DNA from: Candidatus Shapirobacteria bacterium
GTDB taxonomy: Bacteria > Patescibacteriota > Microgenomatia > UBA12405 > BS750m-G30
Length of the DNA: 64,000 nucleotides
Assembly: GCA_043817235.1 (NCBI GenBank)
Contig: JBDRHA010000006.1
Span: forward strand, 10,041-74,040
Direction of reading: 5' to 3'
The notes below the pieces were generated by a model. That model worked only from the letters and a program-made list of their open reading frames with translations. It made no database searches and had not been told where the DNA came from. Shown in pieces: positions 4,746-62,408 of this stretch; the stretch's first letter is position 1; every line of letters starts with the position of its first letter. A program made the translations under genes and the position numbers.

Positions 4746-5471
4746 TTATTTAATTTTTTTGCCAAAGATATTATAGATCTCTATTTTCCCGGCGCTTTTA
4801 AAAAAATTTTCTCCTAAATTAGCGGCCTTAATCGTGAATTTTATTTCCTGACCTAAATCAGCCAATTTAGGTTGGCTGAAAAACTCGCTTATTTCTCCTT
4901 TGGCTTCCAGATCAGCGGTTTGGGAAACTGTAATTAAAATATTACTGCCGATCTGGCCGGCCAAGCCGGGCTGCGCCTGCTGCTCGGAGAAGCTCACTTC
5001 AGGGATTTGCTGAATAAAAAACGTCGCATAATAATCTTTTTGGGGAAGATCCAAAGGCGCAGTAATTTTCAAAACCAGCTGCTGGCTTTGGTTAGGCTCC
5101 AGAACAAAAGTATCGCCCAAATTTATATTAGCGTTATTAAGTTTAAACTCGGGAAGACCCGTAAAAATATCCGGTTCTTGATATGTAATTTGGCCCTCCT
5201 TCGCCAAGGCTTCGGAGGGTAGAAAAAACCTAATTTCAGTTTGTAAATAGAGCAGGGAAGTGCCTAGGTTTTTTACCTCATAAGCTTGGGTGATGCTTTT
5301 TCCCGGCTGCAAGACAACTTCCAAAAGAGGAGGGGAAAGGGAGAGGGAGAAGCTCTGACCAGCGGCGAGGCAAGCCCTGTTTCCCCTGGCCGCTATAAAG
5401 GATATAACGGTTATAACGATTATAATTTTTATAGCGGCCAACAGGAAAAAAAGGACCAAGAGAGCAAGAGA
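4746..5471 (-). CDS. surface protein B2 ectodomain, paralog of 2058-3008. It has no start codon of its own and is read through in frame from the upstream four-helix-bundle ORF.
   Basis: Signal-peptide-like LALLVLFFLLAAIKIIIVITVISFIAA, then LLEVVLQPGKSITQAYEVKNLG..., comparable to LIKLTAIPPRLEISANPGDVVVDQLKVRNEG of B1. The ORF caller fuses it to 5520-6299. Confidence 0.45.
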   Translation of the reverse strand, partial: SLALLVLFFLLAAIKIIIVITVISFIAARGNRACLAAGQSFSLSLSPPLLEVVLQPGKSITQAYEVKNLGTSLLYLQTEIRFFLPSEALAKEGQITYQEPDIFTGLPEFKLNNANINLGDTFVLEPNQSQQLVLKITAPLDLPQKDYYATFFIQQIPEVSFSEQQAQPGLAGQIGSNILITVSQTADLEAKGEISEFFSQPKLADLGQEIKFTIKAANLGENFFKSAGKIEIYNIFGKKIK

Positions 5472-5519
5472 GGCGGTGCCCGCCTCTCGGCGGTAATTTA
5501 GCCGCTTTTTGAGGAGGTT

Positions 5520-6020
5520 TTCTCGAAAACCCCCATTTTTAACAAAGTCCTCCTCCAGCCAGCGCAGTTTTTGGTCTAAAAGCTGGTTTGTCTGGTTAAT
5601 TAGGCAGATCATGGTGTTGGCTGCGGTTTCTCCGCTGCTCTGGTATTTTTTATAATCGTTATAATTTTTATAACGCTTATATACCAAAGCTCTAACAGCT
5701 TTGGCGCTCGGATCGTCTTTAGCCCAAATTTTCAGCTTTTTTTGACGCAAAAAGTCTTGGTAGTCGTTGAGAAGCTCTTCTAAAGAAGCGCGGGCAACGG
5801 CTAAGAGATTGAGTTTGAGCGCACTACTTTTTTGCAAGTATCCTTCGGCGATGTTCTGTTTGCCGGAGCGTGCGGCCTGAATAAGCTGATCGCTTTGCCG
5901 TGAGAAGTTCTTATAACTTTTATGACGGTTATAATTTTTATAAGGGCCAGAAAAACATTTATCTATGTATTTCTCGCAAAACTCCACCGTAAAATCGTGG
6001 ATTATTTCTGCCTGCTGGAA
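5520..6020 (-). CDS. four-helix-bundle protein (TIGR02436-like; the 23S rRNA intervening-sequence protein family). N-terminus unresolved; the upstream part of the ORF, to 6299, is MITE-derived.
   Basis: SDQLIQAARSGKQNIAEGYLQKSSALKLNLLAVARASLEELLNDYQDFL matches the family hallmark Q..R.a.Si..NIAEG...s.......l.iA.gSl.El (from memory). Tyr/Asn-rich 9-bp repeats lie at both ends. Confidence 0.5.
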
Positions 6021-6039
6021 AAATGGAAGAGAGCGATAC

Positions 6040-6250
6040 CCTCCTTCGCTAAAGCTACGGCGGGCAGGCCCTCCTTCGCGGGCAAGCCCTCCTCTGTCAT
6101 TGCGAGGAGTCCCGATGCTTCTTTTAGTCACCGGGACGACGTGGCAATCCCGTTTTGAGATTGCTTCAGTTTCGTTCGCAATGACATTTTTGTTAACCCC
6201 TGTTGCTGCGGTGTGGTTCGGGTCACGCCCGGTGTGTGATTTATCTTCTT
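6040..6250. repeat. MITE-like repeat cluster embedded in frame in the 5' part of the 4746-6299 ORF
   Basis: tgtcattgcgaggagtcccgatgc ... gtggcaatcccgtttt ... gttcgcaatgacattt, plus the ggtgtggttcgggtcacgcccggtgtgtg hairpin. Confidence 0.75.
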
Positions 6251-6298
6251 TCTGGTCCCTATAACGATTATAATGGTTATAACTGTTATATCCCGTCA

Positions 6299-7072
6299 TC
6301 AGTACCCCGGAACAGCAATATAAGTAATGGCATTTTCATAGTTTCCGGCGGCCTGGGATCCGCTGATATTAACTTTATAAGTAACTGTTGCGGTTGAGGA
6401 GGAAGTGACGGCATCAGAGCTCATCACGATTTGAGCACTTTCCGCGCCTTCTTGGTCAGCAAACTGGCGAAAAAAAGTAGAATCTTCAAAATCTTCCGGA
6501 ATATCATCGCCGCTGATTTTAAAGCCAAAGCCGTAAATAGAATCATTTATCCAGGGATCAGCGTCTGTTTCATCGCAAGAAAGTGTGTCACAAGTAGTAT
6601 CAACTATATCATTGGCTTGCTCAGAGCGGAGCGGATGGTTTTCAAAAGCCAGAACTTGGTACCCGCCGGCGCCACCAGCCGATACATTTAAAGTATTGGT
6701 GTCTGTCGAGGGGGTGCCGGGGACTAGTGAGCCAAAAGCAATGCTTAAATCGGAAATTGTAAAAGTAAAGGGAATAATAGAATGAATATACTGGAACCCG
6801 GCTCTCAGCCAATAGCCGTCGGACTGATAATCGCCGGGGGCAATCTGGCCAATAGTGTCGGTTAGGTTATAGCTGTCGGAGGATTTTTCTCCGCCGCCGA
6901 TGTTCACGTTTCCGCCCTGAATTTTATAGCTATCGGAATCCATATTGGCCGCGTTCACCCTCCGATTCGGAAGGCTCACCCTCCGGATTGGAGGGCTGGC
7001 TGCTATAAAAGATATAATCATTATAATAGTTATAATTTTTATAGCGGCCAACAAGAAATGAAGGCGGGTCAC
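6299..7072 (-). CDS. secreted protein A2, a shorter paralog of A1 (3038-4450)
   Basis: N-terminal MTRLHFLLAAIKIITIIMIISFIAA is encoded by the 57-bp repeat at 7002-7058. The C-terminal domain aligns with the A1 C-terminus. Confidence 0.5.
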   Translation of the reverse strand: MTRLHFLLAAIKIITIIMIISFIAASPPIRRVSLPNRRVNAANMDSDSYKIQGGNVNIGGGEKSSDSYNLTDTIGQIAPGDYQSDGYWLRAGFQYIHSIIPFTFTISDLSIAFGSLVPGTPSTDTNTLNVSAGGAGGYQVLAFENHPLRSEQANDIVDTTCDTLSCDETDADPWINDSIYGFGFKISGDDIPEDFEDSTFFRQFADQEGAESAQIVMSSDAVTSSSTATVTYKVNISGSQAAGNYENAITYIAVPGY

Positions 7073-10571: not shown

Positions 10572-10852
10572 CAAAAAATCACACACTCGGTGTGAATTCG
10601 AACCACACCGGGCGTGTGGGAAGCGGGGTGTCGTCGCGAGAGGTGTTCAGTGTCATTGCGGGGCTCGCAATGACAGTCCAAATAGTCATCCCGAGCGCAG
10701 TCGAGGGATCTTTTGAACCAGAAAAAAGGTCGGTTAGTTTCCAAAGATTCCTCGGCTACGCCCCGCAGTTGCGGGGCTGCGCTCGGAATGACACTGAAAA
10801 CAGATTCCCGATCAGGTTGAGAATGACAAAGGAGGTCAGAGTGAGGCTGTAA
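10572..10852. repeat. MITE-like palindromic repeat cluster
   Basis: cacactcggtgtgaattcgaaccacaccgggcgtgtg hairpin, gtcattgcggggctcgcaatgaca, gtcatcccgagcgcagtcgagggatctttt and cgccccgcagttgcggggctgcgctcggaatgacac. Confidence 0.8.
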
Positions 10853-10905: not shown

Positions 10906-11166
10906 ATGCTATATTCAATCATGGTTTATCTTTGGGATTATGATTTAAAAAAGCTAAAGAAAAACAAGAGCGAGCGGGCGAAAATTTTTCTTTTGGAAAG
11001 AATGATAAATTATGGCCCTGGCAAAGAAAAAATAGACTTAAAAGAAGTGAAAAAATATTGGGATAAACTCAATTTGTTTAAACTGCAAAGACGTTTATTT
11101 GAACTATTAATATGGGGAAAATATCAATCCTCACCCCGGACCAAAAAGCCTTTCTGGCGGGGTTGA
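10906..11166 (+). CDS. hypothetical small protein upstream of, and overlapping, the AbiEii-like gene. Possible cognate antitoxin or a fragment.
   Basis: Position only; no recognisable motif. Confidence 0.2.
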   Translation: MLYSIMVYLWDYDLKKLKKNKSERAKIFLLERMINYGPGKEKIDLKEVKKYWDKLNLFKLQRRLFELLIWGKYQSSPRTKKPFWRG

Positions 11167-11768
11167 AGAAAAATCATTATTTTTGCGATAATTTTTACTT
11201 TACTGGAGGCACTGCTTTGGCTGAGTATTATCTTAGCCATCGTTTATCAGAGGATTTAGACTTTTTTTCCGACAAAAGATTTGACAATCATAGGGTGTTG
11301 GGTGGAATAAGAGACTTAAGCAAACTTCTTAATTTTAGCTTTAATTCCCATTTTGCGGAGCCTGCTTACAGTTTTTTTCTCAAGTTTTCTTCTCATTCTC
11401 CAACGAAAATTGACTTTGGTTTTTTCCCTTATCCTAGGTTGGGAAAGAGATTGAAGAAGCAGGGAATTTTGATTGATAGTCAGCTGGATATTGCTGTTAA
11501 TAAATTAATGACTATCTCCCAAAGAACGGATATCAAAGATTTTGTTGATCTTTACTTTTTGCTTGATAAATATTCTTTTTGGGATTTGTTTAGGGGAGTG
11601 GAGGCAAAATTTAAGCAAGAACTTAACCCTTTAATTATTGCTTCTGATTTCTTAAAAATTGAAGAGTTTAATTTCTTGCCGAAAATGATTAGATCTCTCG
11701 AGTTAGAAGATCTGAAAATTTTTTATCGCAAATTAGCAAAAAGATTGGGGAAAAAGAGTTTGCAATAG
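11112..11768 (+). CDS. AbiEii/DUF1814-family nucleotidyltransferase (type IV TA / abortive-infection toxin family)
   Basis: FTGGTALAEYYLSHRLSEDLDFF matches the GGTAL...R.S.DiD nucleotidyltransferase core of the AbiEii family (from memory). Confidence 0.55.
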   Translation: MGKISILTPDQKAFLAGLKKNHYFCDNFYFTGGTALAEYYLSHRLSEDLDFFSDKRFDNHRVLGGIRDLSKLLNFSFNSHFAEPAYSFFLKFSSHSPTKIDFGFFPYPRLGKRLKKQGILIDSQLDIAVNKLMTISQRTDIKDFVDLYFLLDKYSFWDLFRGVEAKFKQELNPLIIASDFLKIEEFNFLPKMIRSLELEDLKIFYRKLAKRLGKKSLQ

Positions 11769-12051: not shown

Positions 12052-12345
12052 AGTGTCATTGTGAAGGGCGTTGCCATCCCCGCGAAGGCGGGGTTCTCGT
12101 TATTCCCGCGCAGGCCGAGAGTCTCTGTCATCCCTGCGCAGGCGGGGATCTATGAAATAATCATATAGATTCCCGATCAGGTCGGGAATGACAAAGAGGA
12201 TGTCATCCCGAGCGCAGTCGAGGGATCTTTTGAACCAGAAAAAAGGTCGGTTAGTTTCCAAAGATTCCTCGGCTGCGCCCCGCGATTCGCGGGGCTGCGC
12301 TCGGAATGACACTGAAAACAGATTCCCAATCAGGTTGAGAACGAT
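12052..12345. repeat. MITE-like palindromic repeat cluster
   Basis: gccatccccgcgaaggcggggttc, gtcatccctgcgcaggcggggatc, gtcatcccgagcgcagtcgagggatctttt and cgccccgcgattcgcggggctgcgctcggaatgacac. Confidence 0.8.
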
Positions 12346-13935: not shown

Positions 13936-16641
13936 ATGACTAAACGAGATTTTAAAAAGCAGGAAAATAAGTGGCAAGTTGTTTGGGAAAAACAGGGCTG
14001 GTATCGGGCTAAGGATTTTGAAAAAAGGAAAAAGAAAAAATATGTTTTAGTTGAGTTTCCTTATCCTTCCGGCGAGGGTTTGCATATCGGCCATGCCTTT
14101 TCTATGACTGGCGCAGATATTTACGCTCGCTTTTGCCGGATGAGTGGTTTTAATGTTCTTTTTCCCATGGGTTGGGATGCTTTTGGCTTGCCTACGGAAA
14201 ATTACGCCATTAAAACCGGCATTTCGCCCCAAAAAGCGACCAAAAAAAACACTGATAATTTTCGGCGGCAGATGAAAAAGCTGGCTTTTTCTTTTGACTG
14301 GAGCCGGGAAATCAATACCACTGATCCGGATTATTATCGCTGGACGCAGTGGATTTTTATTCAGCTTTTTAAAAAAGGTTTGGCCTATAAAGAAGAAAAG
14401 CCAATAAATTGGTGTCCTTCCTGTCGAATTGGGCTGGCCAACGAGGAAGTGATTGACAGCAAGTGCGAGCGATGTGGGGCACAAACTCTTAAAAAGAATA
14501 TTAACCAGTGGATTGTTAAAATCACTGATTATGCTGAGCGCTTAATTTCCGGGCTGGAAGAAACTACTTTTGTTTCTAAAGTAAAAGCGGCTCAAATTAA
14601 CTGGATTGGCAGGAGTGAGGGGGCAAGGGTGAAGTTTAAACTTTCTCAAGACTCGGTCTCAATTTTGCGGTGCTCATCCCGCAGTGGCGGGACTCCTAAA
14701 ATTGAAACCTCGTCAGCTTTCTTGGAGGTTTTTACTACCCGTCCTGATACTTTATGGGGAGCGACTTTTATGGTGCTTTCTCCCGAGCACCGCCTTGTGG
14801 CGGAAATTCTAAATTCTAAATCCGAAGCTCCTGCCTCGCCGGCAGGCGGGCCAAATAAATCAAAAATTTCAAATTCTAATATTGAAGAAATTAAGAAATA
14901 TGTTAATCGGGCGAGGAGAAAGACAGATTTAGAAAGAGCCGAGCTGGAAAAAGAGAAAACCGGGGTCTTTACCGGGATTTATGCCCTAAATCCAGCGAAT
15001 AACGAAAAAATTCCGGTTTGGGTATCGGATTTTGTTTTAAGCACTTATGGTACCGGGGCGATTATGGCCGTGCCCGCTCATGACCAGCGGGATTTTGCTT
15101 TTGCTAAAAAATATAATCTGCCGATTATTCCGGTCATCAAGCCGCCGAAAAAATGGGACTTTGGTAAAGAGCCTTATGTGGATGTGGATCGGGGGGCAAT
15201 GATTAATTCCGGCCCGATTAATGGATTGGCACCGAAAGAGGCGATTAAAAAGACTTTAAATATACTAGAAAAAAAAGAAGCAGGGAAAAAAGCAATTGAT
15301 TATCACTTGCGCGATTGGATTTTTTCCCGCCAGCATTATTGGGGAGAGCCAATACCCATGACTTATTGCGCCAGATGCGGTTGGCAGCCGGTTAAAGAAT
15401 CGGATTTGCCGGTGGAATTGCCAAAGGTAAAAAAATATGAGCCGACTAAAACCGGAGAATCGCCTTTGGCCAATATTAGGGATTGGGTTAATGTTACGTG
15501 CCCAGTTTGTGGAGGTAAAGCTGAGCGGGAAACCGACACCATGCCTAATTGGGCCGGTTCAGATTGGTACTACCTCGCCTATTGCTTCGCAGGCAAACTC
15601 GGAAATTACAAATTACAAATTCCAAAGACCAAACAAATTACAAATTCCAATAACCAAAAACTAAAAAGTTTGGATACTTGTAATTTGGAGCTTGGAAATT
15701 CTCAAAATATTTTTGAGTCTTCAAAAGATGTTTTGAGCCATTGGCTGCCGGTGGATGTTTATGTGGGCGGAGACGAACATAATACTTTGCACCTGCTTTA
15801 TTCCCGGTTTATTTACCAGTTTTTGCGGGATCTGGGAGTAGTGCCCAAATCTATTCCCGAGCCTTATTATTGGCGGCTTTCCCATGGAGTAATTTTAGGG
15901 GCAGACGGGAGTCGTATGAGCAAATCGCGGGGCAACATAGTGGAGCCGGACAAGCTTTGGGAAAAATACGGCGTGGATGCTTTGCGCACTTATATGATGT
16001 TCATGGGCCCGTTTGAGGGAACGATTGTTTGGAATGATAATGCTTTAAAAGGGGTGGTGCGTTTTTTGGATAGATTTTATGATTTCGTAATAACTCCCGA
16101 GGTAGGCCTTGATTCCTCGAGAGCTGCTTCGAGTCCCGGAACTCCCGAGGTAGGCCTTGATTCCTCGGGAGTTGAGGTTGTTGCAATAAATAAGCTTGTT
16201 AATAAAGTTTCTCGTGACTTGTCTAGTTTTCAGTTTAATACGGCAATAGCGGCGATGATGGAATGGCTTAATCAGGCTGAAAAAGAGGCTTGGCAATTAA
16301 AAGACGAAGAAAAAAGAATTTTAATTCAGTTGATTGCACCGTTTGCTCCATATACGTCTGAAGATCTTTGGGAAAATTTGGGAGGAAAAGGGAGTGTGCA
16401 TTGGAGCAAATGGCCAGAAGTGGAAAAAAAGGCTCTTCGAGAAGAAGAGGTGGTTATTGCTGTTCAAGTTAATGGGAAGTTGAGAGCAACAATACAGCTT
16501 AAAACTAAAAGCTTAAAGCTTAAAGCCAGAATAGAAGAAAAAGCAAAGAAAGAAGAAAAAGTCGCAAAATACTTAAAAGGCAAGAAAATAATCAAAACTA
16601 TTTACATCCCGGGAAGATTAATTAACTTTGTGGTAAAGTAA
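13936..16641 (+). CDS. leuS: leucyl-tRNA synthetase
   Basis: HIGH motif PYPSGEGLHIGHAF; KMSKS motif SRMSKSRGN; TTRPDT editing-domain motif. Carries low-complexity and palindromic in-frame insertions (see findings). Confidence 0.95.
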   Translation: MTKRDFKKQENKWQVVWEKQGWYRAKDFEKRKKKKYVLVEFPYPSGEGLHIGHAFSMTGADIYARFCRMSGFNVLFPMGWDAFGLPTENYAIKTGISPQKATKKNTDNFRRQMKKLAFSFDWSREINTTDPDYYRWTQWIFIQLFKKGLAYKEEKPINWCPSCRIGLANEEVIDSKCERCGAQTLKKNINQWIVKITDYAERLISGLEETTFVSKVKAAQINWIGRSEGARVKFKLSQDSVSILRCSSRSGGTPKIETSSAFLEVFTTRPDTLWGATFMVLSPEHRLVAEILNSKSEAPASPAGGPNKSKISNSNIEEIKKYVNRARRKTDLERAELEKEKTGVFTGIYALNPANNEKIPVWVSDFVLSTYGTGAIMAVPAHDQRDFAFAKKYNLPIIPVIKPPKKWDFGKEPYVDVDRGAMINSGPINGLAPKEAIKKTLNILEKKEAGKKAIDYHLRDWIFSRQHYWGEPIPMTYCARCGWQPVKESDLPVELPKVKKYEPTKTGESPLANIRDWVNVTCPVCGGKAERETDTMPNWAGSDWYYLAYCFAGKLGNYKLQIPKTKQITNSNNQKLKSLDTCNLELGNSQNIFESSKDVLSHWLPVDVYVGGDEHNTLHLLYSRFIYQFLRDLGVVPKSIPEPYYWRLSHGVILGADGSRMSKSRGNIVEPDKLWEKYGVDALRTYMMFMGPFEGTIVWNDNALKGVVRFLDRFYDFVITPEVGLDSSRAASSPGTPEVGLDSSGVEVVAINKLVNKVSRDLSSFQFNTAIAAMMEWLNQAEKEAWQLKDEEKRILIQLIAPFAPYTSEDLWENLGGKGSVHWSKWPEVEKKALREEEVVIAVQVNGKLRATIQLKTKSLKLKARIEEKAKKEEKVAKYLKGKKIIKTIYIPGRLINFVVK

Positions 16642-16911: not shown

Positions 16912-17178
16912 ATGAATTATGTAGCAACCAATATCCGTTTTCCGGAAGAGGACTGGAAGTATTTTAAAATCAAGGCCTTGGAGGCTAGGAAAAGTTTGGC
17001 TGCTTGGATCAGAGATTCTTTAAGAGAAAAAGAGGGCTTAACTAAAAAAACTGTCAAAAGCCAAGAGAAAGATTCTTTTTGGGAATTTCCTGAACTTTTG
17101 AAAAAGAATAAAATTAGAGATAAGGCGCCCAAAAATCTTTCTTTAAATCTTGATCAATATCTTTATGGCCAAGAATAA
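16912..17178 (+). CDS. vapB: ribbon-helix-helix (CopG-like) antitoxin, partner of the downstream PIN toxin
   Basis: NIRFPEEDWKYFKIKALEARKSLAAWIRDSL follows the beta-strand-then-helix pattern of RHH antitoxins. Overlaps the PIN gene start. Confidence 0.55.
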   Translation: MNYVATNIRFPEEDWKYFKIKALEARKSLAAWIRDSLREKEGLTKKTVKSQEKDSFWEFPELLKKNKIRDKAPKNLSLNLDQYLYGQE

Positions 17179-17581
17179 GGTATATATTGACACTTCCGCT
17201 TTAGTGGCTTACTTAAGGCCAGCTGATAGCTGTCACAAGAAAGCCGTTAAGGTTTGGGAAAGATTAAGAAAAGACCAGCCAAATCTAATTCTCACTAATT
17301 ATATTCTGGCTGAATTTTTCACTGTAATTAGACAAAGAATTGGAATAAAGGCGGCGGTAAAAGCAGGCGAGATAATAAAAAGGTCTTCGTATTTTAAGAT
17401 AATTTGGGCAGATCAAGTATTAGATGAGGAAGCTTGGAAAATTTTTAAAAAAAACACCCAAAAAAATATTAGTTTTGTTGACTGTGTTTCTATAGCGGTA
17501 ATCGAGAAGTTGAAAATTAATGCCGTTTTTGGTTTTGATAAACATCTTGTTAAGGCCGGAGTTAAATTGATAGAAAACTAA
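17150..17581 (+). CDS. vapC: PIN-domain ribonuclease toxin VapC
   Basis: KVYIDTSALVAYL...LTNYILAEFFTV...FVDCVSIAVIEKL...FGFDKHL carries the PIN acidic residues in canonical positions. Confidence 0.75.
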   Translation: MINIFMAKNKVYIDTSALVAYLRPADSCHKKAVKVWERLRKDQPNLILTNYILAEFFTVIRQRIGIKAAVKAGEIIKRSSYFKIIWADQVLDEEAWKIFKKNTQKNISFVDCVSIAVIEKLKINAVFGFDKHLVKAGVKLIEN

Positions 17582-18627: not shown

Positions 18628-18927
18628 ATGAAAGTCGGAGTTATTACCACTGCTAATGATAAAGGTCAGGTAGTTATCCCCAAATATATGAGGGAAAAAT
18701 TAGGTATTAACAAAAAGGTGCCTCTAAACTTTGTTTTAAGAGGGGAAGGTATTTATATTTATCCGGTAGACGAGGTCTTAGTTTCTAGTAAAAATAGTTC
18801 TTCCTCTTATTTAGAAATGCTGAAATTAACCCAGGGAGGCTGGTCTAGTGAAAATTGGGAATCTATCAGAAAAAGTAGAGAGAGAATAGAAAAAAAAGCA
18901 TCTGAGCAAAGAAGAAAAAGATGGTAG
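18628..18927 (+). CDS. vapB: AbrB/MazE/SpoVT-type antitoxin
   Basis: TANDKGQVVIPKYMREKLGINKKVPLNFVLRGEGIYIYPVDEV is the swapped-hairpin AbrB-fold signature. Overlaps the downstream PIN gene (ATGGTAG). Confidence 0.7.
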   Translation: MKVGVITTANDKGQVVIPKYMREKLGINKKVPLNFVLRGEGIYIYPVDEVLVSSKNSSSSYLEMLKLTQGGWSSENWESIRKSRERIEKKASEQRRKRW

Positions 18928-19307
18928 TAATCGACACGAGTATTGTTATAGATCATCTTCGACAGAAAACTAAAATTAGATCTTATTTAGTAAAACTCGT
19001 CGAAAAACATCCTAAAAACGAACTAGCAATATCAGTTCTGAGTGTTCAAGAGCTATATGAAGGCAGGAGCACGAGGGATGTAAATCAGGAAAAAATACTT
19101 TTGGCGACAATAAGTCCCTTAAGAATCTTGCCCTATAATTATGAAACAGCTAAAATGGCGGGAGAAATAGCGCGTGACTTGGCGGAAACGATTCAATTTG
19201 CAGATGCGGCAATTGCGGCGACAGCCATCGTTAACGGTGGGCAATTAGCCACTTTAAATAAGAAAGATTTTCAGAAAATACGAGATTTAGATTTTTTTAA
19301 TTTTTAA
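18921..19307 (+). CDS. vapC: PIN-domain toxin VapC
   Basis: MVVIDTSIVIDHL...SVQELYEG...FADAAIAATAIVNGGQLATLNKKDFQKI. Confidence 0.75.
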   Translation: MVVIDTSIVIDHLRQKTKIRSYLVKLVEKHPKNELAISVLSVQELYEGRSTRDVNQEKILLATISPLRILPYNYETAKMAGEIARDLAETIQFADAAIAATAIVNGGQLATLNKKDFQKIRDLDFFNF

Positions 19308-22300
19308 ACTTTCAGCTTTTTGGATTTTTTGCCCTCCGGTTTTGAGCAAAATCTCTTTTTCAAACTCCTTTGGCCAGGAAGGAGCAAAAATAATTATTTT
19401 ATCGGTTAATTCTAAATTTTCTTTTCTTCGCAGCGTCTGGACTTCTCTAATTAAATCGCGCGCTTTACCCTCTTTTTTTAATTCTGGGGTTAATTTTGTA
19501 TTGAGCTTTATGCTTTTAGCTAATTTTATTTTTTTAATATTCAGCTCATCTAAAAGAAGATAGTCGATATTTAGCTTCTTAAAAAAGGAAGCGTTTGGCG
19601 AATACAAGGCGGAAAGCGGTTGCTTGACGGCAATATTTTTTGCTTTGCGCAAGGCATGACCTTCGGTAACTTCGTTTCTTAATTGAGCCATTGCTTTTTC
19701 TAAATCCAAATTTAAATATTTCTTTTCTATTTTTGGCCAAGACTGGAGATGAATGGAGTCTTTAACTTTTAATTTATTTTTATTTCCCTGAAGGTTCTGC
19801 CAGACGGTTTCCGGCAAAAAAGGAATAAAGATACCCAAAAGCAAGGAAAGCTGCTCCAGGCAATGATAGAGGGTGCTAAAACAAGCTTCGCGGTCCCTCG
19901 TGTTTTGGCTGTTGGGCGAGAGCCGCTCGCGGGAGCGGCGCACATACCAAAGGGAAAGATCTTCTATAAAGTTTTCTAAGCTTTTTAAGGCGTTTTGATG
20001 ACGAAAACGATTCAGTTCGCCTTGGGCCTCTTTTTTGGTGTTTTCCAGCCGAGAGAGAATCCAAGCGTCAAGCGGGCTAGTGTCATTGCGAGGAGTCGCT
20101 GAGGAGGCGTGGAAATCCAGTTTCCGTGTCATTGCGAGGATCGGAGCGACGTGGCAATCTTTCCAACGGGATCGCCACGCCCCCGACGTCACGTCGTGGG
20201 ACTCGCGATGACAAGGACACCAGCCATTTAAATTCGCATAAGTAGCTAAAAAGCGAAAAGAGTTCCAATAAAGGAAAATAAATCTTCGCCTGATTTCATC
20301 GGCAATAGAATAGCCAAAATTAAGGCCAAGATGGGGCCTTTGCCGGCAGTATAGCCAGCGCATCGTGTCTACTCCCATTTTTTCGACAGCCTCATCATAA
20401 GGAATGCCGTTTTTCTTGGTCTTGCTCATTCGCTCGCCTTTTTCGTCGCGCACTTCGCCGTGGTTAAGAACACTCTTGTATGGAGCCATATTTTCAAAAA
20501 TTACTCCGTAAACGAGCATCGAATAAAACCAGAGCCGGATTTGCTCAATCATTTCCAAAACTAAGTCAGCCGGGAACCACTTTTGCCAGTATTTTTTGTC
20601 TTCAAAATATTTTAAGGTAGAAAAAGGAACGACGCCTGCGTCCAGCCAGCAATCGCCCACGTCCAAAATTCGGTTTACGGGCTTACCGCACTGGGGGCAT
20701 TTGATTTTAATTTCATCAACCCAGGGTCGGTGCAAAGAGGGGAGTTTGTCGACTAAATTTTGGTTTACTGCCAATTTTTTTAGTTCTTTTTTAGAGCCGA
20801 TTACGGTTAGTTTTTTGCACTTAAGGCATTCATAAAAAGGCAAAGATAAGCCGTAAAAGCGCTTGCGGCTGATCATCCAGTCTCCCATATTATTGAGCCA
20901 GCCCTGCATTCTTTTTCCGGCAAATTTCGGAATCCAGTTGGCCGTGGCCGCGGCCTTTTTTAGCTCGGGCTTGATTTTGGTGCAATTAATAAACCAATTT
21001 TCTTCTAAGCGAAATAAAGTTTTTGCGCCGCACCGCCAGCAGTGGGGGTAAGAATGGGTAATGGTTTCCGTTTTATAAAGTAGATTTTTGTCTTTTAAAT
21101 AGTTAATTACTTCTTTTCCCACTTCGTGGGCGTATTTATTAGTTAAACTACCGTAGCCCGGGCCAAATTGGCCGGCTTCCGTTAAAGGAGAAAGAGCGGG
21201 TGCGCCCAAGCTTTTTCCCAGGAGAAAATCGTCTTCTCCACAGCCCGGAGCAATATGAACGATTCCGGTTCCTTCATCTGGATTAGCCAGCTTCCATTTT
21301 ACGACAGAATGCTTAATATTTTTTTGAGCGGGAATATCATAAAGCGATTCGTATTCTTGACCTAATAAATCTTTGGCGGCAACGGAGATTTGGTTTTTCA
21401 AGCCCAAGCGGTCGGCCGACTCTTTAGCCAAATACCAGTATTCGACTCCGCTGTCATCCCGAGCGTAGTCGAGGGATCTTCTTTTTTTTGTCATTGCGAG
21501 CGTAGCGAAGCAATCCCGAGTGGAATCTGTAATTTCAACGGGATCGCCATGTCCCGCAGCTGCGGGACTCGCGATGACACGATTCTTCGCGACGACACGG
21601 ACTTTCACATACTCATATTCTGGATTGATCGCCAAAAGGACGTTAGCAGATAAAGTCCAGGGGGTTGTAGTCCAGGCTAAGAAATACTCATTCTTTTTAT
21701 TTTTTAAAGGGAATTTAACATGAACGGAAAAATCTTGAATATCTTTATAGCCTTCGGCCTGTTCATGGCGGGATAAACCGGTTTCGCACCTCGGGCACCA
21801 GGTGGTGGCGGATTTTGCCTTATAAAGTAATTCTTTTTGGCGGCAGATTTGCAAAAATTTCCAAATATATAAATTATTAGTTTCCGAATAAGTATAATAG
21901 GAATTATCCCAATCCATAAAATAGCCCAAGCGCTTGGACTGCTCGGCTTGCAAGGCAGCATAAGTTTTGACCCGGTCTTGGCATGATTGGGTAAATTTAG
22001 CTAAACCATATTTTTCAATATCTTTTTTGGAATTAAAGCCTAAGGCTTTTTCCACCTCTACTTCAACCCAAAGTCCCTGGCAGTCAAACCCGTTTTGAAA
22101 TCTTTGCTGATAGCCTTGGGCGTTTTTGTATTTTTGATAAAGGTCTTTTAAGGTTCGGCCCCAGGCATGGTGCGCACCCATGGGGTTATTGGCAGTAATT
22201 GGGCCGTCAATAAAAGAAAAGCGCTTTTTAGAATTTTTATTTTTGGCTAAATATTTTTCAAGCAAGCCGTTTTTTTCCCAAAACTTAAGAATCTTTTTTT

Positions 22301-22370
22301 CGTTTTGAACAAAATCAAATTGAGCTTCGGGTAAAGCAAAATAATTTTCTTTCTTTTTCTTAGTTTTCAT
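19287..22370 (-). CDS. ileS: isoleucyl-tRNA synthetase carrying two in-frame MITE insertions
   Basis: HxGH-type motif NPMGAHHAWG; KMSKS-like ERMSKTKKNG; Zn-finger-like WCPRCETGL; CP1 editing region. The ORF is continuous across repeats at 20084-20222 and 21437-21600. Confidence 0.95.
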   Translation of the reverse strand: MKTKKKKENYFALPEAQFDFVQNEKKILKFWEKNGLLEKYLAKNKNSKKRFSFIDGPITANNPMGAHHAWGRTLKDLYQKYKNAQGYQQRFQNGFDCQGLWVEVEVEKALGFNSKKDIEKYGLAKFTQSCQDRVKTYAALQAEQSKRLGYFMDWDNSYYTYSETNNLYIWKFLQICRQKELLYKAKSATTWCPRCETGLSRHEQAEGYKDIQDFSVHVKFPLKNKKNEYFLAWTTTPWTLSANVLLAINPEYEYVKVRVVAKNRVIASPAAAGHGDPVEITDSTRDCFATLAMTKKRRSLDYARDDSGVEYWYLAKESADRLGLKNQISVAAKDLLGQEYESLYDIPAQKNIKHSVVKWKLANPDEGTGIVHIAPGCGEDDFLLGKSLGAPALSPLTEAGQFGPGYGSLTNKYAHEVGKEVINYLKDKNLLYKTETITHSYPHCWRCGAKTLFRLEENWFINCTKIKPELKKAAATANWIPKFAGKRMQGWLNNMGDWMISRKRFYGLSLPFYECLKCKKLTVIGSKKELKKLAVNQNLVDKLPSLHRPWVDEIKIKCPQCGKPVNRILDVGDCWLDAGVVPFSTLKYFEDKKYWQKWFPADLVLEMIEQIRLWFYSMLVYGVIFENMAPYKSVLNHGEVRDEKGERMSKTKKNGIPYDEAVEKMGVDTMRWLYCRQRPHLGLNFGYSIADEIRRRFIFLYWNSFRFLATYANLNGWCPCHRESHDVTSGAWRSRWKDCHVAPILAMTRKLDFHASSATPRNDTSPLDAWILSRLENTKKEAQGELNRFRHQNALKSLENFIEDLSLWYVRRSRERLSPNSQNTRDREACFSTLYHCLEQLSLLLGIFIPFLPETVWQNLQGNKNKLKVKDSIHLQSWPKIEKKYLNLDLEKAMAQLRNEVTEGHALRKAKNIAVKQPLSALYSPNASFFKKLNIDYLLLDELNIKKIKLAKSIKLNTKLTPELKKEGKARDLIREVQTLRRKENLELTDKIIIFAPSWPKEFEKEILLKTGGQKIQKAESLKIKKI
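20084..20222. repeat. MITE pair inserted in frame in ileS (encodes ...CPCHRESHDVTSGAWRSRWKDCHVAPILAMTRKLDFHASSATPRNDTSPLDA...)
   Basis: gtcattgcgaggagtcgc ... gtcattgcgaggatcggagcgacgtggcaatcttt ... cgtgggactcgcgatgaca. The host frame is not broken. Confidence 0.85.
21437..21600. repeat. MITE pair inserted in frame in ileS (encodes ...ASPAAAGHGDPVEITDSTRDCFATLAMTKKRRSLDYARDDSG...)
   Basis: gtcatcccgagcgtagtcgagggatc, gtcattgcgagcgtagcgaagcaatcc and cccgcagctgcgggactcgcgatgaca. Confidence 0.85.
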
Positions 22371-22493
22371 CCTCCTTATTTTACCCCAATTTCCTTAAAA
22401 AATCTGCCGATATTCAACCTCGGGAGTTGATTACCCTTGCAACATCGGGAATCTGAAAAAAGTTGAACACAGGGCGCGTGCGAGTCAAATATT

Positions 22494-24947
22494 TTGCTAT
22501 ACTGGAATTTAATGAAGCGTTTAGGCTTAACTGCTTACCAAGTGGATCAGGCTAGACAAAAGCATGGCTCCAATGTTTTGCCGGAAGAAAAAAGAAAATC
22601 AGCTTGGCGCCTAGTCTTTAGTCAGCTCCAAAACCCTCTAATTTATATTTTGATTTTTGCCAATTTAGTCACTTTAGCTTTAGGCGACTATTCCGACTCC
22701 TTGGTTATTTTTTTGGCGGTAGCAGTTAATACTTTTTTGGGATTTTGGCAAGAAAAAAAAGTTGATCAGGCTCTATCGGCCTTGAAAAAGGCGATTCCTT
22801 TTAAGGTTGTAGCGATAAGGGACCGGAAAGAAGAGGAGATTGAGGCCAAGGACTTGGTTCCGGGAGATTTGGTTAAATTATCCGCCGGCCAGAAAATTCC
22901 GGCGGACGGAAGGCTGCTGGAAAGCCACGATTTGGCAATTAATGAAGCGGTTTTGACCGGGGAATCTCATCCAGTGCGCAAAAAGGCCAGCAGTAAAAAA
23001 AGCCGAGAACATGCTGTTTATTCCGGCACGGTAGTTGTCGGCGGCAGTGGTCTATTTGAAGTGACCAAGATTGGGTTAAGCACTAAAATTGGCCAAATTG
23101 CCCAAACTTTACAGCACACTGCGCAAGAACCTACCCCGCTGCAGCAGCAATTGACCAAATTAGCTAAAACTTTAGCTATAGTCGTTGGCGTCTTGTGTTT
23201 GTTGATTTTTGTTTGGGAAGTTTTGGAGGGAGGAGAGGTGGCGGAGATGTTTGAGCTAGCGGTGGCTATTGCTGTTTCGGCTATTCCTGAGGGCTTGATT
23301 ATTTCTTTGACGGTAATTTTGGCCATTGGGATGCAGAAGATATTTCAAAATAACGCTTTAGTGCGCCGTTTGGTTTCTGCCGAAACCTTAGGGGCGACCA
23401 GTGTTCTTTGTGTTGACAAAACAGGAACAATTACTTTAGGCGAAGTGCAATTAGTGGACTTAAAGGCCGACAAAAAGCGAGCGGCCTTGCGAGCGGCGGT
23501 TTTAGGAGCGGATTTATCTTCGGCGGAGGGCTTAGGAATTTGGGAATTTGCTAAAGAGAAAAAAGTTTTTGACCCCCAAAGAATAAAAGAAGCGGTCAAA
23601 AAAATTTATTTTGCCCCTTTTTCTTTTAAAAAAAAGCTTACCTACGCGATATATGAAGAAAAAGAGAGGAAATTTTGCTATACCGTTGGTGCACCGGAGG
23701 TATTATTGCGCTCCTGCTGTTCAGCCGATCAAAAAAAGTGGTTAAAGTTAATTGATCGCTATTCTGCTCAGGGCTATCGTTTATTAGGCATAGCTGTTTC
23801 GCAAAAAAAGGGCAAAGCGCGAAAAATAGCTGATTTTGGCTGTTTTCAATTTTTGGGCTTACTCAAATTGGAAGACCCGCCTCGGAGGCGGGTGAAAAAA
23901 ACTCTCCAAGAGTGTAGGCAAGCCGGACTGAAAATAAAAATTATTACCGGTGATTATTTGGCCACGGCTCGCGCTCTTTTGGAAAAAATTGGGATTGAGC
24001 TTAAAGCGGGAGAGTATTTGGAAGGCGAAGAACTAAAAGCTTTAAGCGAAGCGCAAAAGAAAGAAAGGATAAGCAAAACTGTTTTATTTGCCCGCACCGA
24101 TCCTTTTCAAAAGTTAGAAATTGTTCAGTCTTTAAAAGAGAGCGGGGAAGTAGTAGCGATGACTGGAGACGGAGTGAATGATGCTCTGGCCTTGAAAAAA
24201 GCGGACATTGGTGTTGTGGTGGCAGAAGGTACTCAGGTAGCTAAAGAAACAGCGGATATGGTTTTGCTGGACAATAATCTGTCCACAATTGTTCAGGCGA
24301 TTGCCCAGGGCCGAGTGATCTTTCAAAATATTCGTAAAGTAACGGTTTATTTGCTTGCCGATAGCTTTACGGAAGTAGTTTTAGTTATTGGTGCGCTGAT
24401 TTTAAGACTGCCCTTGCCCTTGCTGCCGGTGCAAATTCTTTGGGTCAATCTCATTGCCGATTCCTTTCCTTCTTTTGCTCTGGCTTTTGAAAAAGAAGAT
24501 GGCTGGTTGATGAAACAGCCGCCCCGTCGAAAAGATCAGCCGATTTTAGACAAAGAGGCCAAAATAATTATTTTTATTATTGGCTTGGTCACTGATCTAA
24601 TTTTATTAGGTTTCTTTTGGTATTTTAATCGCTCTAGTCTAGATATTCATTATATCCGCTCTTTTATCTTTGCCGCTTTATCAACAGACTCTCTTTTATA
24701 CGTATTTGCCTGCAAAACATTTGCCAAAAGCATCTGGCATACTCGGGTTTTGGACAATAAGTATTTGAATCTTTCGGTTCTTTTAGGTTTTGTTATGTTA
24801 ATCGTTACTTTTGTTTTTCCGCCTTTGGCTCGGCTCTTTGAGCTAACCCCTTTGGGTTGGGACAGCGTCCTCTTAATCGCCGTTTTAGCCGTAGTGGAAA
24901 TCGGCTTGATTGAGTTTGTCAAATTGTTTTTTCTTATTGACAAATAG
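22494..24947 (+). CDS. P-type cation-transporting ATPase (type II-like, HAD superfamily). The true start is probably the ATG at 22512.
   Basis: DKTGTIT phosphorylation motif (LCVDKTGTITLG), GDGVNDALALKKADIGV hinge motif, TGES-like TGESHPV, N-terminal cation-ATPase domain, 8-10 TM helices. Confidence 0.9.
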   Translation: MLYWNLMKRLGLTAYQVDQARQKHGSNVLPEEKRKSAWRLVFSQLQNPLIYILIFANLVTLALGDYSDSLVIFLAVAVNTFLGFWQEKKVDQALSALKKAIPFKVVAIRDRKEEEIEAKDLVPGDLVKLSAGQKIPADGRLLESHDLAINEAVLTGESHPVRKKASSKKSREHAVYSGTVVVGGSGLFEVTKIGLSTKIGQIAQTLQHTAQEPTPLQQQLTKLAKTLAIVVGVLCLLIFVWEVLEGGEVAEMFELAVAIAVSAIPEGLIISLTVILAIGMQKIFQNNALVRRLVSAETLGATSVLCVDKTGTITLGEVQLVDLKADKKRAALRAAVLGADLSSAEGLGIWEFAKEKKVFDPQRIKEAVKKIYFAPFSFKKKLTYAIYEEKERKFCYTVGAPEVLLRSCCSADQKKWLKLIDRYSAQGYRLLGIAVSQKKGKARKIADFGCFQFLGLLKLEDPPRRRVKKTLQECRQAGLKIKIITGDYLATARALLEKIGIELKAGEYLEGEELKALSEAQKKERISKTVLFARTDPFQKLEIVQSLKESGEVVAMTGDGVNDALALKKADIGVVVAEGTQVAKETADMVLLDNNLSTIVQAIAQGRVIFQNIRKVTVYLLADSFTEVVLVIGALILRLPLPLLPVQILWVNLIADSFPSFALAFEKEDGWLMKQPPRRKDQPILDKEAKIIIFIIGLVTDLILLGFFWYFNRSSLDIHYIRSFIFAALSTDSLLYVFACKTFAKSIWHTRVLDNKYLNLSVLLGFVMLIVTFVFPPLARLFELTPLGWDSVLLIAVLAVVEIGLIEFVKLFFLIDK

Positions 24948-30778: not shown

Positions 30779-31348
30779 GTGAAAAATAAAAAAGCTTATT
30801 GGCAGCAGAGTGTAGTATTAATCAAGCCCGATGGGGTAGCCAGAGGGCTAATTGGCGAGATAATCTCTCGGTTTGAAAAAGTGGGCTTGAAAATGACTGC
30901 TTGCAAGTTAGTGGTGATTCCTCGGGAAATAGCTTTTAAACATTATGGCTATAATGATGAGTGGTTTGAGAATGTGGGAAAAAAAGTAATGGAATTTTAT
31001 AAAGAGCACGGAAAAGATCCCAACGAAGAGCTGGGAACCATGAAGTCTAAAGAGATTGGCAAAATGGTTCAGGAGTGGAACGTGAATTACTTAACTTACG
31101 GTCCGGTTTTGGCTATGATTTGGGAAGGCCAGCACGCCATAGAAGTAATAAGAAAGATTGTTGGCTCCACGTATCCAAATCAGTCAGCTCCGGGAACCAT
31201 AAGAGGAGATTACGCTTTTGACTCGCCCTTAATTTCGAATTCGGAAAAAAGATCAGTTTTTAACTTGATTCATGCTTCAGGAAAAGAAGAAGAGGCAAAA
31301 TTGGAGATTGAGCTTTGGTTTAAAAAGGAAGAGATTTGTAGGTATTAA
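30779..31348 (+). CDS. ndk: nucleoside diphosphate kinase (long form with insertion); GTG start
   Basis: QQSVVLIKPDGVARGLIGEIISRFEKVGLKMTACKL and NLIHASGKEEEAKLEIELWF are NDK signatures including the catalytic His region. Confidence 0.9.
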   Translation: MKNKKAYWQQSVVLIKPDGVARGLIGEIISRFEKVGLKMTACKLVVIPREIAFKHYGYNDEWFENVGKKVMEFYKEHGKDPNEELGTMKSKEIGKMVQEWNVNYLTYGPVLAMIWEGQHAIEVIRKIVGSTYPNQSAPGTIRGDYAFDSPLISNSEKRSVFNLIHASGKEEEAKLEIELWFKKEEICRY

Positions 31349-32892: not shown

Positions 32893-33068
32893 AGATCCTT
32901 CGGCTACGCTCAGGATGACGAAGAGAGTGTCATTGCGAGAGCTTTGACTTGCACACACCCGGTGTGGTTCGGGTCACACCGGGTGTGTGGCGATCCCGTT
33001 GAGATTGCCATGTCAGTCGCCCCGTAGCTGCAAGGCTCCTTCCTCGCAATGACAGGGAGTTGTTGGTA
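32893..33068. repeat. MITE-like repeat cluster with the cacacccggtgtggttcgggtcacaccgggtgtgtg hairpin
   Basis: ccttcggctacgctcaggatgac; a full element tgtcattgcgagagc...ttcctcgcaatgaca with the hairpin nested inside. Confidence 0.8.
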
Positions 33069-39669: not shown

Positions 39670-40320
39670 ATGCTAGTTTTAGGCTTGGGCAATCCGGAAA
39701 AAGAATATCAAGATAATCGCCATAATACGGGCAAGCAGTTTTTAGACTTTTTAGACCAAAATAACGAATTAAATTGGCAAAAAAGAAAAGACTTGCTTTG
39801 TTTTTTGGCCAAGAAAGATGATTTATATTTGGCCAAATCTCTAACTTATATGAATGATTCGGGTCAAGCTGCTCAGGCTTTAGTAAAAAAATTAAAAGTA
39901 AAATTAAATAATTTTTATTTAGCTCATGATGAGCTGGATTTAAAATTAGGGGAGTATAAAATTAGCTTTGGCAAAAGTTCGGCTCTTCATAAAGGAGTTT
40001 TATCAGTAGAGCGGGAGCTAAAAAGTAAAGATTTCTGGCGCGTTAGGATTGGGGTAGATAATCGCGATTCAGAAAACCGGATTGCGGGGGAAAGATATGT
40101 TTTGCAGGATTTTCGATCAGAGGAAGAAAAAAAGCTAAAAAAAGTATTTGAGGAAATCATTGTGTCATTGCGGGGGTATTGTCATCCTGAGCGAAGTCGA
40201 AGGATCTTTCCGAAGATTCCTCGATCCCGCAGCTGCGGGACTCAAGATGACTATTTAAACTGTCATTCCGAGCGCAGCCCCGCTACTGCGGGGCGTAGCC
40301 GAGGGATCTTTGAGAATTAA
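39670..40320 (+). CDS. pth: peptidyl-tRNA hydrolase with about 45-aa C-terminal extension encoded by MITE repeats
   Basis: MLVLGLGNPEKEYQDNRHNTGKQFLD is the Pth N-terminal signature with catalytic His. Residues after about 170 (GYCHPERSRRIFPKIPRSRSCGTQDDYLNCHSERSPATAGRSRGIFEN) are the translation of the repeat units at 40168-40317. Confidence 0.9.
   Translation: MLVLGLGNPEKEYQDNRHNTGKQFLDFLDQNNELNWQKRKDLLCFLAKKDDLYLAKSLTYMNDSGQAAQALVKKLKVKLNNFYLAHDELDLKLGEYKISFGKSSALHKGVLSVERELKSKDFWRVRIGVDNRDSENRIAGERYVLQDFRSEEEKKLKKVFEEIIVSLRGYCHPERSRRIFPKIPRSRSCGTQDDYLNCHSERSPATAGRSRGIFEN
40168..40317. repeat. MITE-like repeats forming the 3' end of pth
   Basis: gtcatcctgagcgaagtcgaaggatcttt, cccgcagctgcgggactcaagatgac and tgtcattccgagcgcagccccgctactgcggggcgtagccgagggatctttg. 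Confidence 0.8.
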
Positions 40321-47778: not shown

Positions 47779-47878
47779 TGTCATTCCCGATTCTGATCGG
47801 GAATTCTCTGTCATCCTGAGCGTAGCCGAAGGATCTATTGCTTCCAAAGATTCCTCGGTTGCACTCGGAATGACCTTT
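47779..47878. repeat. MITE-like repeats inside the rplJ leader
   Basis: tgtcattcccgattctgatcgggaattc, tgtcatcctgagcgtagccgaaggatctat and ctcggttgcactcggaatgac. Confidence 0.75.
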
Positions 47879-53457: not shown

Positions 53458-53662
53458 CCTTGTCATTCCGAGCGCAGCCCCGCCGTTGCGGGGCGTAGTC
53501 GAGGAATCTTTTGGGGAATTAACCAAACACCGCTTGGACAAGAAAGATCCCTCGACTGCGCTCGGGATGACCATTTGAACTGTCATTGCGTGGCAATCTT
53601 GCTTTTCCGACGGGATCGCTGCGCCCCCGACGTGACGTCGGGGGACTCGCGATGACATTTAA
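53458..53662. repeat. MITE-like repeat cluster
   Basis: tgtcattccgagcgcagccccgccgttgcggggcgtagtcgaggaatctttt, ccctcgactgcgctcgggatgac and the full element tgtcattgcgtggcaatcttgc...gggactcgcgatgaca. Confidence 0.8.
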
Positions 53663-62396: not shown

Positions 62397-62408
62397 TTTT
62401 AGATTAAA

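Follow-up and report, generated by a model that had tools for sequence, protein, structure and literature searches.

Palindromic repeats that lodge in frame within bacterial genes have been described for the repetitive extragenic palindromes (REPs) of the CGTC superfamily. As set out in the text of the report on them, these carry a tag that is often TGTC (or CCTC), followed by AT-starting stems of 8-9 bp with 4-5-nt loops, and they occur chiefly as head-to-head dimers without a dedicated transposase (Di Nocera et al. 2013, BMC Genomics 14:522, PMC3733652). The hosts named there include Bradyrhizobium, sphingomonads, Micavibrio and Rickettsia conorii, with two Rickettsia palindromic elements (RPEs) assigned to the superfamily (RPE-6 as CGTC-1, RPE-4 as CGTC-4). 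In-frame intragenic copies are reported in uvrA, uvrB, dnaE, recBCD and tRNA-synthetase genes, with clusters encoding 43-82 amino acids (aa) in Thauera and R. conorii, and the supplement of the report places a CGTC-1 dimer within the isoleucyl-tRNA synthetase (IleRS) of Erythrobacter litoralis (ELI_13550, aa 467-488, VTPAEAGVSPGHEQIPASAGMT; PMC3733652). [quoted passage not shown] Here we analyzed a 64,000-nt stretch of DNA (the window, along which all positions are numbered) from a metagenome-assembled genome (MAG) of Candidatus Shapirobacteria, a lineage of the candidate phyla radiation (CPR), in which ileS, the gene for a type-2 IleRS, runs through two clusters of palindromic repeats.

We conclude, with a probability of roughly 85%, that the genome's own REP-like palindromes have lodged in ileS, where translation would continue through them and add loop peptides of 48 and 44 aa to the protein.

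ileS runs unbroken through two composite repeat clusters

The gene and the parts of its two insertions are as follows.

19287..22370, minus strand: ileS, type-2 isoleucyl-tRNA synthetase, 1027 codons in an unbroken open reading frame (ORF), identified from the ORF list, Pfam, TIGR00392, PDB matches and NCBI
21453..21596, minus strand: insert 1, composite repeat cluster in the CP1/editing domain, 144 nt, codons 259-306 (VVAKNRVIASPAAAGHGDPVEITDSTRDCFATLAMTKKRRSLDYARDD)
21579..21596, minus strand: part of insert 1, probably the head of an element, truncated and duplicated (CGTGTCGTCGCGA, agreeing at 12/13 positions with the neighboring CGTGTCATCGCGA at an 18-nt offset)
21490..21578, minus strand: part of insert 1, full palindromic element of 89 nt (GTCATCGCGAG...CTCGCAATGAC) with a TGTC/GACA tag, delimited by motif matches, fold and alignment to extragenic copies
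21481-21489: part of insert 1, A-rich spacer of 9 nt between the full and the half element
21453..21480, minus strand: part of insert 1, half element (AAGATCCCTCGACTACGCTCGGGATGAC), whose 28 nt share 96% identity with 10685-10712, 12202-12229 and 53544-53571
20082..20213, minus strand: insert 2, composite repeat cluster in the predicted linker before the anticodon-binding domain, codons 720-763 (CHRESHDVTSGAWRSRWKDCHVAPILAMTRKLDFHASSATPRND)
20128..20212, minus strand: part of insert 2, full palindromic element of 85 nt with the architecture of 21490-21578
20118-20127: part of insert 2, spacer of 10 nt between the full and the 3′ half element
20082..20117, minus strand: part of insert 2, 3′ half element that terminates in CTCGCAATGAC (motif match at 20082-20092)

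An initial annotation, made from the letters of this DNA, had stated that the 1027-codon frame continues through both repeat clusters. The ORF is indeed intact, and both peptides quoted there are present verbatim; the coordinates given for the clusters, 21437-21600 and 20084-20222, were right to within ~16 nt and are refined here to 21453-21596 and 20082-20213. The repeat proper of insert 2, from terminus to terminus, spans 20082-20212 (131 nt). Across the insert junctions the predicted protein reads VRVVAKNR, ARDDSGVEYWYLAK, LNGWCPCHR and PRNDTSPLDAWILSR.

The surrounding protein is an IleRS. Pfam recognizes tRNA-synt_1 (aa 26-675), Anticodon_1 (aa 768-921) and DUF5915, and the product corresponds to NCBI MFH1601484.1 of a Candidatus Shapirobacteria MAG — in line with the CPR-like host proposed in the initial annotation — where the gene lies on a 146.7-kb contig and the annotation says no more than "class I tRNA ligase family protein". 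With the inserts kept, the protein scores 669.8 bits against the NCBIfam ileS equivalog TIGR00392, above the curated cut-off of 621.4; in silico removal of both inserts raised the score to 692.3 bits and turned a match in three stretches into a single one over profile positions 4-847 of 861. The top PDB matches are the type-2 IleRS structures 8c8w (P. megaterium) and 1ile (T. thermophilus), and the alignments to PDB IleRS chains are interrupted at aa 259-299 and 720-764, the places of the two inserts. Conserved class-I and editing-domain motifs are kept: the invariant columns of a 120-sequence alignment, in which the query is the first row, include H67, H68, W233-T239 (WTTTPWT) and G367/G369/H372 of the window IleRS, and RMSKT stands at aa 647-651. 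This ileS is presumably the only one in the cell.

Base composition sets the inserts apart from the gene that holds them: together they have a GC content of 57.5% (54% for insert 1, 61% for insert 2), against 40.7% for the remainder of ileS. Within each insert only two of the six reading frames are free of stops, and outside ileS 34 of the 84 frames of full elements are open (~40%). Neither of the single full elements, at 85 and 89 nt, has a length that is a multiple of three, and either would shift the frame, whereas the composite insert 1 measures exactly 144 nt.

The inserts are copies of dispersed repeats

Both clusters in ileS are built from repeats (TGTCATYGCGAG...CTCGCRATGACA) that fill the intergenic DNA of the window. 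Against an expectation of 0.20, the window has 47 occurrences of their terminal motif, GTCATYSYKAG, a count reached in no shuffle; 6 of the 47 lie inside ileS. Insert modules are 90-96% identical to extragenic copies; within insert 2, for example, 20160-20212 matches 53604-53656 at 91% identity, inside the following comparator.

53581..53657, minus strand: nearest copy of the insert-2 element outside a recognizable gene (repeat family D16, alignment A2)

The two full elements in ileS share one architecture, in which the head TGTCATCGCGAG is followed by a short GC hairpin, then by a stem of the GGCGATCCCG/GGGATTGCC type and finally by the tail CTCGCAATGACA, and both could be aligned with four copies outside recognizable genes. 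In the predicted fold of each, a closing stem surrounds two inner hairpins (21490-21578, -40.2 kcal/mol, z = -4.3; 20128-20212, -39.9 kcal/mol, z = -3.2). These results confirm, well beyond chance, that both inserts derive from the repeat, and uphold the earlier assertion that their DNA is that of the intergenic elements. Only 9 of the 47 termini fall in recognizable genes (six in ileS, two in pth and one in the ORF at 4746-6299), although non-overlapping ORFs make up ~81% of the sequence.

The inserts are missing from orthologs and map to predicted loops

We aligned the window IleRS with its 120 nearest orthologs, drawn from Shapirobacteria, Microgenomates and Patescibacteria (51-63% identical, 903-999 aa), a comparison in which the initial annotation expected the segments to be missing from most sequences. 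Insert 1 is missing from all 120: its columns are filled in none, and a stretch of 56 residues in the query corresponds to exactly 8 in every ortholog. Insert 2 is missing from 119 of 120, whose loops at this site hold 8-19 residues compared to 49 in the query. The exception is the nearest ortholog (P0001), which has a private 31-aa insertion in the very loop that holds insert 2. The DNA behind that insertion (contig L001, 10012-10156) is a different, AT-rich palindrome of 145 bp with 38-nt arms that are 76% complementary, and it too is in frame (PQILSSKQAQNPNDKNSKQEGLKHSNLGNSD...). Since an unlike palindrome occupies the same loop in this relative, site 2 is a recurrently permissive loop. The 15-kb contig of P0001 contains no TGTCAT-type motif, so that the TGTCAT expansion appears specific to the lineage of the window.

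Searches for closer sequences returned little. A metagenome scan for close ileS relatives with a wobble-degenerate pattern for AINPEYEYVKV gave 0 matches, hence no filled and empty alleles could be compared, and a search of the insert 1 peptide (42 aa) against 5.8 billion proteins yielded no candidate with enough common 5-mers and is uninformative. Look-ups of the exact proteins in the gene-position index gave no entry for either IleRS or LeuRS. In the protein collection (P0241/P0242), the window IleRS sits in a '90% identity' cluster led by P0242, an unrelated 51-aa phage-like protein (ENA contig L122); because it is clustered under P0242, its self-match was hidden in the homology search, which is a database artefact and no sign of a close relative.

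An AlphaFold2 (AF2) model, computed with the 120-sequence alignment, was used to place the inserts, with loops called from its DSSP assignments and per-residue confidence (pLDDT). The model is confident overall (mean pLDDT 89.5, pTM 0.86), and confidence is low only at residues 1-3, 263-305 and 720-765. Residues 263-305 (pLDDT 27-47) belong to the CP1/editing domain, where they are flanked by the β-strands E254-260 and E309-315, ~20 residues past WTTTPWT; residues 720-765 (pLDDT 50-55), flanked by the helices H687-714 and H766-787, are at the junction to the anticodon-binding domain. In the predicted fold, insert 1 would therefore form the tip of a β-hairpin and insert 2 an inter-helix linker, both in loops between secondary-structure elements, a point that the initial annotation had proposed to test by structural mapping.

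The elements resemble REPs and RPEs more than MITEs

The initial annotation had called the elements MITEs, and several features accord with that name: terminal inverted repeats of 11 nt (GTCATYGCGAG / CTCGCRATGAC), units of 65-125 nt and 47 termini in 64 kb. We scanned GTDB representative genomes with the pattern GTCATYGCGAG-N50-80-CTCGCRATGAC and obtained at least 120 matching stretches. No target-site duplication was enriched in the 129 external elements with the same termini that are listed (identity of flanks at k = 4-10 in 1 case in total), none is evident at the ileS insert junctions, and the 40 ORFs screened with Pfam, out of 53 main ones in the window, contain no transposase domain. 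Instead, the flanks of the 129 listed elements extend the palindrome, with a pyrimidine at -1 (C in 87, T in 34) and a purine at +1 (G in 87, A in 37); with C or T at -1, the head of the element reads C/TGTC-AT. Both full elements in ileS read TGTCAT...ATGACA and so bear the tag of the CGTC superfamily.

The window contains five strict CGTC-REP hairpins (483-506, 527-551, 12126-12149, 12169-12193 and 47779-47804) against 0.14 expected, and 11 head-to-head ATGAC-N9-10-GTCAT junctions. The full elements in ileS themselves depart from the canonical REP stem, having an AT-initiated 8-bp stem around 63-67 nt with two inner hairpins. Because they keep the tag and the AT-initiated 8-bp stem at an enlarged size, they look like members of the CGTC/TGTC-tagged REP superfamily that are enlarged relatives, not canonical REPs. 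We dropped the strict MITE label on account of the negative search for target-site duplications, together with the lack of a transposase in the 40 ORFs screened, the tag, the AT-initiated stems and the REP-like organization with 9-10-nt spacers; REP/RPE-like palindromic element is the better description. The view of the initial annotation that the elements are a family different from the RPEs is not supported either, given that the C/TGTC-AT head is the CGTC REP signature, published as including R. conorii RPE-4 and RPE-6 (PMC3733652, text). Its parallel with the Rickettsia RPEs was apt: in both cases a palindrome is inserted in frame at predicted tolerated positions of a functional gene.

Element termini are common to more than 10 phyla among the matches listed and are not specific to CPR bacteria. 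The hosts listed include Bradyrhizobium, sphingomonads, Micavibrio, Rickettsiales, Tisiphia, Coxiellaceae, Mucilaginibacter, Pedobacter, Flavobacterium, Chlorobaculum, Dehalococcoidia, Anaerolineae, Planctomycetota, Microcoleus, Opitutaceae, Omnitrophota, Zixiibacteriota, Gemmatimonadetes, Patescibacteria and Berkelbacteria. In three unrelated MAGs the same element, from terminus to terminus, lies in frame in a protein-coding gene: in the GATase domain of the GMP synthase GuaA (L047, 4466-4543; PDB alignment broken at aa 113-137), in UvrA (L056, 2835-2921) and in glycosyltransferase/SGNH-like genes of an Omnitrophota genome (L108, 2024-2099 and 5871-5951).

Origin of the inserts and alternative explanations

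We envisage that the repeats multiply chiefly in intergenic DNA, our default guess being that they move by mobilization in trans or by a hairpin-mediated route of replication or recombination. Elements would land anywhere and then be purged from genes unless frame-compatible and structurally harmless; copies surviving in an essential gene would be those that keep the frame, bring no in-frame stop and sit where the fold tolerates extra residues — here, the predicted β-hairpin tip in the CP1/editing domain and the predicted linker that joins the anticodon-binding domain to the catalytic body. We favor such a selection filter because only two of six frames are open in each insert and because so few of the 47 termini lie in recognizable genes despite the high ORF cover. 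Most likely, then, the inserts are tolerated selfish DNA and not a functional module.

Several considerations weigh against this account. Translation of the insert peptides is deduced from the ORF, so that the assertion in the initial annotation that protein segments have been created from selfish DNA in an essential synthetase stands for the DNA, which is repeat-derived, in frame, stop-free and missing from orthologs, and is presumptive for the protein. At 131-133 nt, the repeat span of insert 2 is no multiple of three, and an accompanying small deletion or truncation must be assumed. The best IleRS ortholog is only ~60% identical, with no close relative or empty allele found, and the insertions are undatable for want of such a relative. 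The label of surface loop derives from DSSP and pLDDT of a predicted model, and the position of insert 1 inside the editing domain makes an effect on proofreading possible. A second, uninterrupted ileS might also lie outside the 64 kb.

The last of these points, taken further, would make the window ileS a decaying or non-functional paralogue, with an intact copy elsewhere doing the work. The restriction of our view to 64 kb of the genome and the generic NCBI product name would fit this, but the gene has 1027 codons without a stop, passes the equivalog cut-off even with its inserts, retains the residues of the invariant columns including WTTTPWT (with the query as first row) and has a confident AF2 fold outside the inserts. 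CPR genomes are small and usually hold one copy of each aminoacyl-tRNA synthetase gene, which further counts against a paralogue; we regard it as quite improbable. Somewhat less far-fetched, though still unlikely, is exaptation, whereby the extra loops or the mRNA hairpins now serve IleRS as an interaction surface, in altered editing or by translational pausing between domains. The ORF has been kept open across ~92 added codons, the editing domain holds insert 1, each element gives a strong RNA fold (-40 kcal/mol), and the site 2 loop of the nearest relative is filled by a different palindrome, all of which could reflect function. Yet disorder is predicted for the insert peptides (pLDDT 27-55), which are conserved in 0 of 120 orthologs, while their DNA is still 90-96% identical to extragenic copies; moreover, the two full elements are read in different frames (VIAS versus CHRE), which argues against a selected peptide.

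Two further readings would remove the segments from the mature product or from the genome itself. Intron-like excision, RNA processing or ribosomal bypass before or during translation might draw on the very stable hairpins that the elements form, and CPR rRNA genes do carry intervening sequences. Under any of these, however, nothing would hold the segments in frame and stop-free, as both are with only two of six frames open, and in-frame, stop-free copies likewise occur in GuaA and UvrA of other genomes. A search of the ileS region (19000-22600) with Rfam found no family at E ≤ 1; units of 85-144 nt are far below the size of group I or II introns, and 44-48 aa is below that of inteins. We therefore rejected intron, ribozyme and intein readings of the inserts (131-144 nt, 44-48 aa) and consider removal of the segments very improbable. 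Repeat-induced misassembly, by which intergenic repeats were placed into the ileS of the MAG, has the smallest chance of being right. The source is a MAG rich in dispersed repeats, and we found no second independent assembly of this ileS; but a misjoin would normally change the locus, whereas both flanks of each insert belong to one gene, stay in its frame and align perfectly with orthologs, at two independent sites, and similar in-frame insertions occur in independent assemblies and, in the literature, in isolate genomes. Tolerated insertion of the genome's own palindromes thus remains our preferred explanation.

Repeats in and around other genes of the window

Beyond ileS, the initial annotation had drawn attention to the C-terminus of pth and to a four-helix-bundle gene. 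The first observation is borne out by the following feature.

40181..40320, plus strand: repeat cluster that provides pth (39670-40320) with its last ~45 codons and its stop

The 216-aa pth product (NCBI MFH1601500.1, annotated as is) matches Pfam Pept_tRNA_hydro over aa 2-168 only, and about its last 45 aa run into the TGTCAT-type cluster (...SLRGYCHPERSRRIF...CHSERS...). The second observation holds in part. The ORF at 4746-6299 (minus strand, 517 aa) has a weak match to the four-helix-bundle family 23S_rRNA_IVP at aa 134-178 and does contain a TGTCAT-type copy (6096-6106); this lies near the N-terminus and, because it is upstream of the recognizable domain, may not be coding. A second, AT-rich repeat family (TATAACGGTTATAACGATTATAATTTTTATAGCGGCC), among repeats within 5387-7059, is read in frame there, giving YKNYNRHKSYKNF and YKRYKNYNDYKKY, and several genes may be fused in this ORF.

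LeuRS shows a related pattern in less clean form. Relative to T. thermophilus LeuRS, the leuS product (13936-16641) has extra segments at aa 240-259, ~293-315, 551-599 and ~726-745; among the corresponding stretches of DNA (14650-14714, ~14810-14885, 15609-15687 and 16092-16173), three coincide with inverted repeats and one contains a REP-like hairpin (TCATCCCGCAGTGGCGGGA). The segment at aa 551-599 is common to a 71%-identical protein (P0122). The window has no further copy of any of the segments, and we rejected them as dispersed repeats; in several orthologs the same loops vary and look repeat-like (QISNFKFQI is one example), which makes the case less clean than that of IleRS.

Two small GIY-YIG nuclease genes, at 40354-40644 (PF01541, E = 2.7e-13) and 62406-62624, both on the plus strand, stand 30-150 nt from repeat clusters. 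Among the 120 external element loci listed, a GIY-YIG homologue was detectable at one (L108, Omnitrophota), 33 nt from a terminus, and at this sensitivity we rejected an association between GIY-YIG genes and the repeat as a general rule. Genes of toxin-antitoxin type are also found among repeat clusters, at 11112-11768 (AbiEii nucleotidyltransferase), 17150-17581 (PIN domain) and 18628-19307 (AbrB-like/PIN pair); the last, identified by eye, overlaps the 3′ end of ileS. A further palindromic repeat, CACACACCCGGTGTGGTTCGGGTCACACCGGGTGTGTG, is present twice (722-767 and 32948-32993), one copy being nested in a TGTCAT-type element at 32929-33053. Two other proteins have unusual layouts: ArgRS (53744-56215, plus strand, 823 aa) bears an N-terminal B3_4 domain at aa 69-200 (PF03483), an unusual fusion for this enzyme, and nucleoside diphosphate kinase (30779-31348, plus strand, 189 aa) has a Pfam NDK match that is split in two (the best stretch aligns aa 94-186 with profile positions 53-135), which suggests an internal extra segment, with no GC anomaly or repeat seen there.

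For annotation, the practical consequence is that repeat clusters yield spurious ORFs and C-terminal extensions, and ileS itself bears only a generic name in NCBI. The inserts also point to a tangible origin, open to testing, for some of the lineage-specific insertions in CPR proteins that have lacked an explanation. A broader proposal, which we hold to be doubtful, is that one TGTC/CGTC palindrome superfamily spans more than 10 phyla including ultra-small CPR genomes and, together with other palindromes, repeatedly seeds new peptides in this Shapirobacteria lineage, in the same permissive loops of essential translation enzymes (IleRS, Pth and possibly LeuRS), with a spread that might involve the small GIY-YIG nuclease genes next to repeat clusters. 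If this were true, selfish palindromes would be a systematic source of lineage-specific insertions in CPR proteins.

Comparison with known palindromic elements

Intragenic MITEs such as ERIC (Delihas 2007) and QMITE1 of Coxiella (PMC5896051) are, as far as these sources describe them, small non-autonomous repeats with inverted termini and open frames that occur inside ORFs, as do the elements here. True MITEs differ in having their own target-site duplications and a parent insertion sequence with matching inverted repeats, neither of which was found in the 129 listed elements and the 40 of 53 ORFs covered.

The likeness to CGTC REPs, as these are portrayed in the text of PMC3733652, extends further. 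Both have a C/TGTC tag followed by an AT-initiated stem, lie head-to-head with short spacers, and are mainly intergenic with occasional in-frame copies in housekeeping genes (uvrA, dnaE, tRNA synthetases); REPs lack a dedicated transposase and target-site duplications, and for the elements here neither was found in the 40 ORFs screened and the 129 elements listed. The encoded peptides correspond as well, since V-I-P...G-M-T of the published REPs is read in the same frames as VIAS...LAMT of the window, and the host ranges overlap among the matches listed (Bradyrhizobium, sphingomonads, Micavibrio and Rickettsiales). The differences lie in size, site and host. The units in ileS are larger, with an 8-bp stem enclosing 63-67 nt in place of the 8-9-bp stem and 4-5-nt loop of REPs; the E. 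litoralis IleRS insertion comprises ~22 aa, in contrast to multi-element composites of 44-48 aa here, and occupies a different site of the enzyme; and the window belongs to a CPR bacterium, a group without mention in the text of that report. Our literature search with the element termini and characteristic peptides gave only unrelated primer and word matches and no link to CPR bacteria.

The novelty that the initial annotation saw in selfish DNA lying in frame within an essential gene was overstated, as REP and RPE cases are published, even in the E. litoralis IleRS (PMC3733652, supplement). In-frame palindromic insertion itself is already known from Rickettsia RPEs and proteobacterial REPs, IleRS included, and no new mechanism is revealed; new are the host lineage, the size and composite make-up of the inserts, their occurrence as a pair in a single gene, the editing-domain site and, in the nearest relative, a different palindrome in the loop of insert 2. 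RPEs, as summarized in PMC10969869 from Ogata et al. (2000, Science 290:347), are likewise palindromic, ~100-150 bp long and inserted in frame in genes that are unrelated and often essential, in a bacterium with a small genome; they were judged compatible with the fold, and no transposase is known for them. Host phylum and element sequences differ between the two. Because RPE-4 and RPE-6 are reported as CGTC-tagged, however, the RPEs and the elements of the window may be kin at the level of the superfamily, linked by the tag and by the pattern matches in Rickettsiales and Tisiphia.

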